NCBI GenBank assembly: GCA_964016885.1
Contig: OZ024742.1
Coordinates: 232,748,001 to 232,812,000 of the forward strand
Length of the DNA stretch: 64,000 nt
Source of the DNA: Eledone cirrhosa
Lineage: Eukaryota
Direction: 5' to 3'
The stretch's first letter is position 1, and each line of letters opens with the position of its first letter. The notes under the pieces were generated by a model. The model did no database searches. It was given only the letters and a program-made list of their open reading frames with translations, and was not told the DNA's origin. A program made the translations under genes and the position numbers. Below are positions 17,708 to 48,100 of this stretch, one piece after another.

Positions 17708-18407
17708 CATCCGGGTGTCTGTGTGTGTTTGTGTTCATTTATCTATTTGTTTATTTATTTACATGTTGTTGGTTGGTTGTTTGTTCTATGTGTGTGTGTG
17801 TTTTCATTTTGTCCTTATTTTGTCCTTAATTGTAAGTTGTGATGTTGCTGTTACACTCATATTTTCTATTAATTTTGGTTGTAATTCTTTTTATGTTTAC
17901 TGCCTCTGTAATTTGTCTAAATAAAAGAATTACAACCAAAATTAAATAGAAAATATGAGTGTAACAGCAACATCACAACTTACAATTAAGGACAAAATAA
18001 GGACAAAATGAAAACACACACACACATAGAACAAACAACCAACAACATGTAAATAAATAAACAAATAGATAAATGAACACAAACACACACAGACACCCGG
18101 ATGTGGCGCATGCGCAAACTGAGCACACAACACACACACAGAAACAAAATGGCGTAGGACAGAAGAAAGGAAAGGCACAGAAACAAAGAAAGGAATCCCC
18201 AGTCACTGAAGAGGTCACAGAGTGTGTGACGAAAGGACTATGACTATATATAAACAACTATCTGGTTGTGGAACAACCAACCAACCAGAAATTTATAAAT
18301 TTGTAGATTTGTAAATTTATAGATTTATAAATATATAATAAATTGAAGTGAAAGCAACTGGTGCGTGTGTTTCTTATTGGCAACATGACCCTCCCAAAGT
18401 ATAACAA
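17708..18407. mobile_element. Fold-back element A, copy 1 (left arm cut by the gap)
   Basis: Nearly identical to ~23945-24650; arms inverted around a spacer at ~17890-17920. Confidence 0.8.
18201..18245 (+). ncRNA. Type I hammerhead-like motif in element A
   Basis: AGUCA-CUGAAGA-(G)GUCACA/UGUGAC-GAAA-GGACUA-UGACU: 5-bp stem I, 6-bp stem II with one extra G, minimal stem III, CUA triplet. Confidence 0.6.
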
Positions 18408-18564
18408 TATATATATATACATATATATATATATATATATATATACATACATATATATATATACATACATATATATATATATATATATATATATACATAT
18501 ATATATATATATATATATACATATATATATATATATATATATACATATATACATACATATATAT

Positions 18565-19190
18565 ATAAAAGACGTAAAATAAGAAAATTAAAAAAAAAAT
18601 TTTAAAGAATATTTTAAAGAATTAACTTACTTAAATTTTCACTCCAACTAATTAGTTTCTGCAATGGGATAAAGACAGTTACGTAATGAACTGTTGAGAA
18701 TTTCATTGCGTCATCAGGGAGGTCTATTCTCAGCCAAGTCTCCAGGCAATGCGCGGACACTGGGGACTCATATAAAAATAATAATAATTCGGTAAATGAC
18801 CAGTGGCAGTGAGAATTTTCAGTGCCTGGAATCCAGTCCTCGATAGCTGTTCCATTTACCGAATTATTAATATTTTTATATGAGTTCCCAGTGTCCGCGC
18901 ATTGCCTGGAGACTTGGCTGAGAATAGACCTCCCTGATGACGCAATGAAATTCTCAACAGTTCATTACGTAACTGTCTTTATCCCATTGCAGAAATTAAT
19001 TAGTTGGAGTGAAAATTTAAGTAAGTAAGTTAATGCTATAAAATTTTTTTAAAAATTTTATTTTACGTCTTTTATTTTATTGTTCTGCATCCTCCTGCAT
19101 TGAACCACCTAGGTACTATGACATAACCTGTGTATTTGCTGGCATTAGCGTACATCTGTGCGCTTATGTTAGTAGATATATTAAATTATC
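18565..19190 (+). mobile_element. Fold-back element B, copy 1
   Basis: Inverted arms 18565-18798 and 18853-19075, ~54-nt spacer, ~115-nt tail, (TA)n on both sides. CTGATGA-cgcaat-GAAA at 18934-18950. Confidence 0.8.
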
Positions 19191-19253
19191 TATACATATA
19201 TATATATATTTCGTTTCTGAATTTGGCAACATGACCCTCCCAAAGTATAACAA

Positions 19254-20725
19254 TATATATATATACATATATACATACATATATATATATATACATACAT
19301 ATATATATATACATACATATATATATATATACATACATATATATATATACATACATATATATATACATACATATATATATACATACATATATATATATAT
19401 ACATACATATATATATATACATACATATATATATACATACATATATATATACATACATATATATATATATATATATACATACATATATATACATACATAC
19501 ATATATATATATACATATATACATACATACATATATATATATACATATATACATACATACATATATATATATACATATATACATACATACATATATATAT
19601 ATACATATATACATACATATATATATACATATATACATACATATATATATATACATATATATACATATATACATACATATATATATATACATATATACAT
19701 ACATATATATATATACATATATACATACATACATATATATATATACATATATACATACATACATATATATATATACATATATATATATACATATATACAT
19801 ACATACATATATATATATACATATATATACATACATACATATATATATATATATACATATATACATATATATACATATATACATATATATATACATATAT
19901 ATATATACATATATATATATAATATATATATACATATATATATATATATATACATATATATATATATATATATACATATATACATATATATATATATATA
20001 CATATATATATATATATATACATATATACATATATATATATATATACATACATATATATATATATATATACATATATACATATATATATATATATATACA
20101 TATATATATATATATATATATATATATATACATATATACATACATACATATATATACATATATACATACATACATATATATATACATATATATACATATA
20201 TACATACATACATATATATATACATACATATATATATATACATACATATACACATATACATACATACATATATATACATACATATATATATATATACATA
20301 CATATATATATATACATACATATATATATATACATACATATATACATACATACATATATATATATATACATACATACATACATATATATATATACATACA
20401 TACATATATATATATATACATACATACATACATATATATATATATACATATATACATACATATATATATATATATACATACATACATATATACATACATA
20501 TATATATATATACATACATATATATACATATATACACATACATATATATATATATATACATACATACATATATATATACATACATACATATATATATATA
20601 CATACATATATATACATACATATATATATACATACATATATATACATACATACATATATATACATACATATATATATATACATACATACATATACATATA
20701 TATATATATACATACATATATATAT
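19254..20725. repeat. Compound (TA)n/(TACA)n microsatellite, ~1.5 kb
   Basis: Direct reading; the YI/HI-rich ORFs here are artefacts. Confidence 0.97.
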
Positions 20726-20782
20726 AACGTAGGAGGTGAGTTTTATTGTAGTACAATAAAACTCACCTCCTTCGACATCACA

Positions 20783-45627: not shown

Positions 45628-46460
45628 TTTATCCCTCCTCTCTGAAACAGTTTCGTCGTATGTTCACCAATTGATGCAGAAGTCCTAATAAAAAGCGAAG
45701 TCGCATTGAGTGAATAGGCAAATAATTTTCCATTAAGGTTTTTCAAAGCATGTAATTGCGTTCCCTCTCCTTTTTGTTGTTGTTTTTGTTGCTGTTGGTG
45801 TCATAGCAGCCGTTAGTCGTACTACTAACACAGTCTCGTCTTTCTTTAGCCAATCGTGTATATCCCCTTCTGCCTCGTCAGAAATGAGAACAATGTTTGC
45901 TCTAGGGTTCTTATATATTTTATATATATTTATCCTTATCGAACCTCGTGAAATAAATACGTTTGTTTATATTTTGTTATTGTGTATGCAAAAATATCTG
46001 TACACGAATATATAATTATATATATATATATACATATATATATATTAAAATAATAGATTAAAGTTTAAGCGAAGAATCGCTGCTTTCACCCTTAACGGGA
46101 TCTTCTGAAACTAAAAAAAATCAATCTGTGAACGCAGAAGTAAATATTTCGAAAAACGTTTCACACACACTATATATATATATATACACATATAGTGTCA
46201 TAATGTCGTAATGCAGACAGATATTATAAGGGCGCGACGTTATAGCTATGTATCTATCTAAAAAGACAGACTAAGAAAGATAGAGAGATCGCTAACCGGC
46301 GCCTAATGCGGTCCCTAGGGCATTGAAAATTTGAAATATTTTTTGCTCAAAACACTCACACGACCACAAGTATTACACGTGTAGAGTCTGAAAAAAAGCG
46401 ATTGGGTGGTTCTCGAGTTTTAGGGAGTCAGACAGACATTCTCTGTTTTAGATATATAGA
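45578..46460 (-). mobile_element. Non-autonomous Helitron-like element, same family as 10773-11848
   Basis: Minus strand A|TCTATATATCTAAAAC ... cccgagcaacgccgggccattctgCTAG|T. Confidence 0.8.
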
Positions 46461-46882
46461 TAACGAACCAATGAGCGAAGACCGCAGAATACCACGTTAT
46501 TGGAATGTGGTAAATATAACAAGCTACTGGAGATATTCACACAAAATCAGAGACGAGCTTACATATTGAGGCATATCTGATGATCTTTCGATTCAAGAGT
46601 CAGGTTCGATCAATAATAGATCGTTCCTCGAGATGATCAACCGTGAAACATGTAAGATGTTATTAGATATGTTATGATGCAGCATTGACTCTTTGTTCCT
46701 TTATTCTTATACTATATATATATACATTTTGAGTATATGTTGGTTGTTTACCGACACCTCAGTATGCAGATTGGAGCACTCGACGAAGTACGAGGGTTGG
46801 TTTGGTTACTCCGGAGTAATGTAAAATAAAATAAAATAATTAAGTCAAATATTTAAAATTTGGCTTCGTTTATTAAAGATGT

Positions 46883-46937
46883 ACTGCTATATATATTTCG
46901 GTGACAGCCATCATTGGCTGTGACCTCTTCAGGCAGT
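46883..46937 (-). ncRNA. Type I hammerhead ribozyme (element D left arm)
   Basis: ACUGC-CUGAAGA-GGU(C)ACAGCCA-AUGA-UGGCUGU(C)ACC-GAAA-UAUAUA-UA-GCAGU: intact core, G10.1-C11.1 pair, palindromic stem III, AUA triplet. Confidence 0.8.
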
Positions 46938-47102
46938 CCGAATTTGTGTGGTAGAGACAGGTACACATGTTGTTAAAGTGTTTTACTCCGTCAGTACTCC
47001 GATATGCCCAGCTCCTAGTTGGGTTGTGATTTCTCTGAGGAAATTGACGGAGTAAAACACTTTACCAACATGTGTACTTGTTTCTACCACACCAATTCGG
47101 AC

Positions 47103-47155
47103 CTGCCTGAAGAAGTCACAGCCAATGATGGCTGTCAGCGAAATATATATAGCAG
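47103..47155 (+). ncRNA. Type I hammerhead copy (element D right arm) with a mutated stem II base
   Basis: CUGC-CUGAAGA-AGUCACAGCCA...UGGCUGUCAGC-GAAA-UAUAUAUA-GCAG. Confidence 0.6.
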
Positions 47156-48100
47156 TACATCTTTAATAAACGAAGCCAAATTTTAAATATTTGACTTATT
47201 ATTTTATTTTATTTTATATATATATATATATATATATATAGATATTATATTATATATATATATATATATATATATATATATACTATAGAGTAAAGCATGT
47301 CCAGAGAATTATTTGATAATATATATACATCATCTCTACTCCCAATCAGCACAATTAACCACACAAAAAAATCAATTAGACCAGGCGATAAGAATAAAAG
47401 GCATCTATGAAGAAACAGTAAATAAATACGCTATCGTGGCGTCTTCGCGTGCAACCGCTATAGAATATTTACCCAACATTTCGACAGCACGTGGAAATTA
47501 ATTAAATACACGGTCAACCATACATAATTAGGTAAAACTTAATGTTAGAAATGCTTATATACATACCAGGACTAAATCACTAAATCCGGCTTTGTTTAAT
47601 TGGTGTATGTGTAAATATTAATATTATATATATATATATATATATAAGCAAAATAAATGGAGGAGAAGGTAATACATTCAAAAAACAAAATTTACTTCTT
47701 ACACGAAAGAACTTTATCATCACATTGATTGTATGATTTGCATGATATCGTAATTGCCAAAAAAGTAGACATTAATTTGTATTTAAATTTCTTTCTTTCT
47801 GAAAGAAACGATATGTTATGCCAGTTAAAGTCCTGTTAACAGAGAGAAGAAAACAATATTACTCAATCACTAATATTATTCTAAATATTGTGGCATGCAT
47901 GGGAGACAACTCCAGAAATGTTTCGGTCTTATGATTTCATCAAAATAACCATATGATTAAGAATTCAAGACGTAATCACCGTATTTATCAAATGTGGAGG
48001 AGTAAATGTACAAGATTATACACTGGTTTGTGTAGGAATATATAATTGTTTAGAAAATAAATAACTCAGAAACTAGAAACAACAACATTCAAATACTTAC

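Follow-up and report, generated by a model that had tools for sequence, protein, structure and literature searches.

We examined a 64,000-nt stretch of the genome of the cephalopod Eledone cirrhosa (assembly GCA_964016885.1, contig OZ024742.1, positions 232,748,001 to 232,812,000; hereafter, the window), which holds four fold-back elements, A to D, with hammerhead ribozyme motifs in both arms. The arms of A, C and D are the 3' ends, or pseudo-long terminal repeats (pLTRs), of three families of Penelope-like elements (PLEs), and those of B are partial units of a tandem repeat without an open reading frame (ORF). Very probably, each hairpin is a one-off insertion in which two separately primed cDNAs were joined head to head by their 3' ends, a conclusion drawn from the mixed outer ends of the copies, their variable inner junctions, the sequence variants shared by their arms and the existence of insertions composed of two non-overlapping stubs.

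A preliminary description of the window had reported four fold-backs with long inverted arms, short spacers, one-sided tails and (TA)n flanks; a self-BLAST of the window recovered all four where it had placed them, and (TA)n surrounds each of them. They are mutually dissimilar, as stated there, except for a 15-mer at the hammerhead core that is common to A and D. The two copies reported for both A and B are present, but they belong to one local direct duplication of ~3 kb (17708-20726 = 23945-26915) beside a gap of 200 N and are not independent insertions. A and A' differ by 2 mismatches in 700 and B and B' by 7 in 626, and the duplication next to the gap is possibly an assembly overlap. The features are as follows.

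23585..24650, both arms: element A, two head-to-head 3' ends of a putative Neptune-type PLE; long (tailed) arm on the minus strand, 24160 to 23585; short arm on the plus strand, 24161 to 24650; tail 23585-23640; arms ~490 bp, spacer 31 nt, tail 56 nt
24443..24487, plus strand: hammerhead of the right arm of A, core at 24448, predicted cut after 24482; mirror copy on the minus strand, core at 23842, predicted cut after 23808
17708..18407: A', within the ~3-kb duplication and ended by the assembly gap; hammerhead core at 18206, plus strand
19210..19253: mini-A, a 44-nt insertion after the B element, with ~17 nt of the long end and ~30 nt of the short end head to head and non-overlapping; duplicate at 25452-25495
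24808..25432, both arms: element B, two incomplete units, joined head to head, of a tandem hammerhead repeat with a unit of 553 bp; short arm on the minus strand (to 24808); long arm on the plus strand, 25039-25432; tail ~25318-25432; cores at 24959 (minus) and 25176 (plus); arms ~230 bp, spacer ~56 nt, tail ~114 nt
18565..19190: B', in the same duplication; cores at 18717 (minus) and 18934 (plus)
44646..45118: element C, two pieces of the pLTR of a putative Penelope-type PLE, joined head to head; short arm on the minus strand, 44838 to 44646, extending to the strong-stop motif described below; long arm on the plus strand, 44839-45118; cores at 44760 (minus) and 44863 (plus); arms ~145 bp, spacer ~54 nt, tail ~132 nt
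46725..47214: element D, two pieces of the pLTR of another putative Penelope-type PLE, likewise joined head to head; long arm on the minus strand, 47042 to 46725; short arm on the plus strand, 47043-47214; cores at 46932 (minus) and 47107 (plus); arms ~170 bp, spacer ~47 nt, tail ~99 nt
20729..23555, plus strand: element E, directly left of A, a 5'-truncated, putatively Penelope-type frame with reverse transcriptase (RT) and GIY-YIG parts up to 22210, followed by the 3' untranslated region; strong-stop motif 23380-23387, hammerhead core at 23452, short end at 23555; left stub 20729-20760, an inverted 32 nt of the family's long end

The arms of A, C and D adjoin reverse transcriptase frames

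Elsewhere in the 3.0 Gb genome that contains the window, RT frames adjoin the sequences of A, C and D, which bears out the PLE origin suggested for the fold-backs in the preliminary description. Counts for each family refer to the 30 best loci out of roughly 560-2900 first-look candidates in each genome search, and the candidate numbers (562-2937 per query) are lower bounds, not copy numbers. At locus L113, the A arm runs upstream into an open frame of 498 codons for RT and a GIY-YIG endonuclease, which ends inside the arm; its matches to RVT_1 (E 7e-4) and GIY-YIG (E 5e-4) both fall short of the Pfam cut-offs, and its atlas neighbours carry RVT_1, HTH_animal and GIY-YIG. The fold-backs had been described as lacking any ORF, a statement that needs amending for A, in which the final ~31 codons of the GIY-YIG endonuclease lie within the spacer and the inner arms. 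A Cys-rich linker between RT and endonuclease (CxxxxCxxC), recognized by eye in L113 and its relatives, suggests that A is a Neptune-type PLE.

For D, a single locus (L039) carries, in this order, an inverted D piece, a D pLTR, an RT frame and a second D pLTR, such that the pLTR is directly repeated on both sides of the ORF. The ends of C and A abut ORFs: at L154 a 442-codon RT frame, which shares 57% identity with that of D, begins ~40 nt beyond a C end, and at L120 an A end directly precedes the N-terminal frame. The RT frames of C, D and E are 47-57% identical to each other, and blastp of these frames against that of A gave no significant match. Those of C and D had no Pfam match, and the endonuclease part of their ORFs was not seen in the fetched loci; the E frame in the window has both RT and GIY-YIG-like motifs. 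The atlas neighbours of the C, D and E frames are rotifer and plant RT clusters. Most A copies, and many of those of C and D, have a single arm and lead into RT ORFs. Thus, A, C and D are the pLTRs of three PLE families.

In E, the stretch at 21560-21790, between RT and GIY-YIG, is rich in Asn, and we liken it to the N-rich inserts that passages of PMC3846280 describe in rotifer Penelope ORFs. The hairpin at the 5' end of E was at one point taken for a snap-back within the ORF and proved to be the family's inverted long end.

Outer ends are fixed and paired, inner junctions vary

In each family the outer ends are fixed and of two kinds, long and short, the difference between them being the tail (56 nt in A, about 81 in E, 99 in D, 114 in B and 132 in C), and two-armed insertions almost always combine one of each. 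Among 30 D loci, which include the window copy and its duplicate, 16 two-armed insertions were mixed, one was short/short, none was long/long and one was left unclassified, and the 12 single-armed loci were split 6/6 between the long and the short end. For A, 13 of 30 loci were two-armed, 12 of them mixed and one short/short. These counts for A and D come from tail-free queries. Tailed queries yielded 22/22 mixed two-armed insertions for B (scored by eye with repeated fetches merged; one further locus was unclassified and one had an interior long/long join), 11/12 for C and 23/23 for E. The 3' ends of the pLTRs lie in (TA)n at 28/30 D, 29/30 C and 27/30 E loci, in agreement with the (TA)n preference proposed for the elements.

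The inner junctions behave differently from the outer ends: the preliminary description had named fixed spacer and tail boundaries across many copies as what would support independent amplification, and whereas the outer ends are fixed, junctions and spacers vary. We found 26 different junctions in 27 distinct D loci. The longer arm was the tailed one in 17 of these loci and the tail-less one in 10, and a tail-less arm reaching further upstream also occurs in copies of B, C and E. One D copy has the same junction as the window copy; because it shares the flanks as well, it is a DNA duplication. The window junction of A recurs only in the local duplicate. Where junctions do recur, they sit on microhomologies or on the strong stop, and one C junction was found in two subfamilies. 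In addition to mini-A, insertions made of two non-overlapping stubs include E, with its 32-nt stub, and the D loci L198, L217 and L218.

The two arms of a copy resemble each other more than arms taken from different copies do (identity 0.948 within copies of D and 0.946 within those of C, against 0.91-0.93 between copies), and recurrent substitutions are mostly present in both arms. No arm-specific substitution lineages were found; a single homopolymer indel looked arm-specific through alignment orientation. Nor was there an A>G excess of the kind that copying from a hairpin RNA could leave.

A stop motif shared by C, D and E

Many arms of C, D and E stop at the A of a common motif, TTC^ATATG, located 70-120 nt before the hammerhead core. 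In pooled loci, which include those from size-biased searches, arms ending within 6 nt of this A outnumber those passing it by 33 to 20 in D, 28 to 18 in C and 36 to 15 in E, and a fresh E sample showed a stop at the motif in 18/30 loci. Apart from a second motif copy that C has within an internal hairpin, most other offsets hold few junctions. All three families include perfect palindromes with ATAT at their centre; the commonest centre, CATATG, is self-complementary and often accompanied by a few added palindromic bases. Stopping at the motif makes many hairpins similar in size and MITE-like (miniature inverted-repeat transposable element). We considered that motif-stopping copies form a separate non-autonomous lineage and rejected this, as they carry no convincing private variants, and a few C variants lean the opposite way.

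TTC^ATATG resembles the initiator consensus. This likeness, together with the start of Drosophila virilis Penelope transcription inside the pLTR that is described in part of PMC2377424, leads us to favour run-off at the 5' end of a pLTR-initiated RNA as the possible cause of the stop, at chances that we judge about even; a pause, or pairing of ATAT with the target, would be the alternative. No TATA or downstream promoter element was seen by eye near the motif.

Element B is a tandem hammerhead repeat

Window B comprises 394 nt of a 553-bp unit found in tandem arrays, often head to head. B is retrozyme-like, and it is non-autonomous in the form of a tandem repeat rather than of a hairpin. The preliminary description had placed a CUGANGA...GAAA core in both arms; in B, the GAAA that closes the hammerhead lies 58 nt after the core start and is not the adjacent one. 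Across 8 related sequences, the B stems covary, with 97% of cells paired and two-sided changes in 3 pairs (7 cells); 0/500 shuffles scored as high, a control that kinship among the sequences can beat. A type III reading of this hammerhead, with a 1-bp stem I, was displaced by the covarying type I fold. In the right arm of the second B copy, stem I is broken.

Diverged relatives of B, 72-90% identical and some of them in tandem arrays, are present at L052, L139, L162 and L203, with compensatory changes in stems I and II.

Like the non-LTR retrozymes described in parts of PMC7229834, B is a tandem repeat that lacks an ORF and has a type I hammerhead in every unit. Its unit of 553 bp exceeds the 220-390 bp of the retrozyme examples given in the portions of PMC7229834 and bioRxiv 10.64898/2026.07.22.740005 used here, and unlike those retrozymes, as they are portrayed there, B bears PLE-style two ends and a one-sided tail. 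The latter source, in the part considered, argues for a PLE origin of animal retrozymes from phylogeny.

Hammerhead motifs are conserved and probably buried in the hairpin

In A to D, the hammerhead cores of both arms face away from the centre, as originally noted. A type I hammerhead descriptor (core, stem I of 4+ bp, closed stem III and UH site) matched 11 times in the first 49.7 kb of the window (A 3, B 3, C 2, D 2, E 1) compared with a mean of 0.12 (maximum 3) in 100 shuffles, an enrichment of about 90-fold. An Rfam scan of the window showed no hammerhead among the best 150 of 173 matches; these 150 were miRNA-model matches to hairpins and microsatellites. The core is intact in 73/75 arms of A, 54/57 of B, 76/94 of C, 97/118 of D and 65/71 of E. 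Recurrent variants occupy 1/55 core columns versus 87/473 other columns, in copies that are related, so that the comparison is not a formal test. Because the core columns are almost free of recurrent variants, the motif is, on this pattern of conservation, apparently selected in the source elements.

The G10.1-C11.1 pair that closes helix II is present in A and D and, with an extra base on each side, in B; in C, helix II has an irregular form, and ViennaRNA did not fold the motifs of B and C, taken in isolation, as hammerheads. Within the whole-hairpin RNA, the predicted probability of stem I is 0 for all four of A to D, suggesting that the hammerheads in the hairpins are likely passengers that would be buried in duplex on read-through. 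Published PLE hammerheads cleave weakly, as dimers or with protein (PMC11167929 and sections of PMC4209133). The motifs resemble the minimal type I hammerheads of metazoan PLEs, as presented in those sections of PMC4209133, in their helix I of 4-5 bp, the unpaired base before helix II and the short palindromic helix III, and differ from them in the long loop II regions of B, C and E, with 36-51 nt from core to GAAA.

Proposed two-site priming and its alternatives

We infer two-site priming from opposite strands, followed by end-joining, with the tail as inter-site RNA. Specifically, the PLE enzyme would nick both strands of a (TA)n tract, and two short cDNAs would be primed from the opposite strands at two fixed internal RNA sites 56-132 nt apart. 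Their 3' ends would be joined head to head by end-joining, with microhomology or filler; the tail would represent the RNA between the two start sites, and the spacer the extra length of whichever cDNA ran further. In C, D and E, of the cDNAs reaching TTC^ATATG, about half or more stop at its A. B would likely be moved by a PLE. The priming chemistry is borrowed by analogy from PAc, the Poseidon element of Anolis carolinensis, in which the tail lies between two internal RT start sites, the enzyme cuts and extends both strands, the target is AT-rich and the hammerhead is not needed for insertion in vitro (PMC11167929); the hairpins, too, lie in an AT-rich target, and the two start sites and the use of both strands would be further features in common with PAc.

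Several points weigh against this account. PAc showed no strand difference in start-site use in vitro, in contrast to the pairing of long and short ends here (PMC11167929), so that work does not account for the one-of-each rule. The tails, at 56-132 nt, exceed the 30-40 bp given in the part of PMC8557442 drawn on here. Some junctions recur, namely, five perfect palindromes with one centre in E and the repeated C junctions, as copying of whole units could also produce, and the likeness of the arms could stem from gene conversion between them. A and B show neither the motif stop nor a junction hot spot, and the signal at the stop for an extra, non-templated G, such as copying of a cap would leave, is weak, with G at -1 in 17/51 junctions, several of which are explained by microhomology. 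No RT frame adjoins B arrays in 30 loci (L070-L099); a partner elsewhere is possible. All genome counts are from best-30 samples, not a census, and are biased to young, query-like copies, and the tailed queries behind the B, C and E counts under-sample short/short copies.

A wider, joint reading, which we offer tentatively and regard as somewhat doubtful, combines obligate asymmetric double priming, run-off at a capped 5' end at TTC^ATATG in three families and B as a PLE-inserted retrozyme. A single complex would then use the long start site for one strand of the target and the short one for the opposite strand, run-off cDNAs would pair through ATAT, the hairpins would be rebuilt at each insertion and solo arms could seed copies.

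Of the alternatives, the unlikely one in which a single cDNA snaps back and copies itself, with the second end created by a nuclease cut, would account for the variants shared by the arms and for a commonest centre that is self-complementary and extended by a few palindromic bases. The preliminary description had entertained snap-back truncation of several PLE families, and truncated ends of several families are indeed what the hairpins contain. Simple snap-back fails because either arm can be the longer one, the tail-less arm reaching further upstream in 10/27 D loci and in copies of B, C and E, and because non-overlapping stubs exist; the 6/6 split of D monomers between the two ends also opposes it. 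Later deletion at the centre of a perfect palindrome could rescue the point on arm length, not the monomers.

The other proposal of the preliminary description, in which non-autonomous hairpins are transcribed in full, undergo processing by their own hammerheads and are inserted again by PLE enzymes, is very unlikely. Fixed outer ends, many copies of similar size, conserved cores, recurring C junctions and the five one-centre palindromes in E are in its favour, but junctions are mostly unique (26 different ones in 27 D loci), recurring ones lie on microhomologies or the strong stop, and one C junction spans two subfamilies; the D copy with the window junction is a DNA duplication. Moreover, there are no arm-specific lineages, the A>G excess that a long RNA duplex might collect was not seen and stem I has a probability of 0 in the whole hairpin. 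Amplification of hairpins as units is largely refuted for A, B and D. Finally, TA-targeting MITEs or fold-back DNA transposons with an incidental hammerhead match would show inverted arms, no full ORF and TA flanks, as seen here, and are nonetheless vanishingly improbable, being refuted by the linkage of single-armed A, C and D copies to RT ORFs and contradicted by one-sided tails that break terminal symmetry, variable centres and hammerheads that are conserved and about 90-fold enriched over shuffles; a target-site duplication would be hidden within the (TA)n flanks.

Other features of the window and its relatives

A single expanded (TA)n/(TACA)n tract at 17708-26915 holds a stack of six PLE-type insertions (A', B', mini-A, E, A and B), together with family F. 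Family F (26915-28090) consists of 2.3 tandem copies of a 514-bp unit without an ORF; we counted at least 2126 first-look candidates, the arrays reach about 14 units, and the 3' end, ahead of (TA)n, is constant at around unit position 145-155. The hammerhead-like core of F has a permuted order, with GAAA, a palindromic stem III, the cut site and a closed 4-bp stem I followed by CUGAUGA; no helix II could be paired, and F appears retrozyme-like. The flanks of loci L001-L299 contain at least 8 further type I hammerhead families with palindromic stem III, suggesting that many more PLE families reside in the (TA)n of this genome.

Three fold-backs in the window lack a hammerhead core: one between C and D (45223-45627; 116-bp arms, 99% complementary, with a ~170-bp spacer), whose flank also matches 11275-11849, one at 453-673 and one at 40414-40733, which is built from two copies, in opposite orientation, of a SINE-like repeat that is frequent in the window. 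Two intronless-looking frames on the minus strand encode a 356-aa SOCS-box protein (744-1814) and a 347-aa rhodopsin-family G protein-coupled receptor (48097-49140). A 40-bp satellite with at least 362 copies extends from 49755 to 64000 and continues past the end of the window.

Relation to known elements and implications

In having an ORF with RT and C-terminal GIY-YIG, pLTRs, an inverted copy, a tail on one end, (TA)n targets and palindromes at pLTR 5' ends, the elements resemble the EN+ PLEs Penelope/Poseidon and Neptune as characterized in parts of PMC8557442 and PMC3846280; unlike in those descriptions, many insertions here consist of pLTR sequence only. Inverted 5'-truncated copies, a one-sided tail and a (TA)n bias are standard for PLEs (PMC8557442, in the part cited), palindromes at pLTR 5' ends have been noted in rotifers (a passage of PMC3846280) and dual opposite-strand motifs ~100-700 bp apart were reported in 2014 and ascribed to truncated PLEs (a section of PMC4209133). 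Inverted, tailed PLE copies with opposite-strand hammerheads are already published, and the interest lies in the mechanistic regularities, not in the elements themselves. Within the literature searched, which was mostly non-subscription and did not extend to supplements or Repbase, we found no statement of the one-of-each rule or of a stop motif common to several families, no retrozyme described with the two-end signature and no hammerhead-bearing PLE hairpins in a cephalopod.

The origin of inverted repeats and one-sided tails in PLEs is called an open question in PMC8557442. The present findings supply countable constraints for the in vitro PLE system, namely, one long and one short end per insertion and a stop motif shared by families, and B ties a retrozyme to the same insertion reaction. 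If the joint reading is true, B would be direct genomic evidence that PLE enzymes insert retrozymes, which would then not be confined to local tandem amplification. More broadly, this 3-Gb animal genome contains thousands of such inverted repeats, perfect or nearly so, which repeat finders might classify as MITEs and from which read-through would yield double-stranded RNA.

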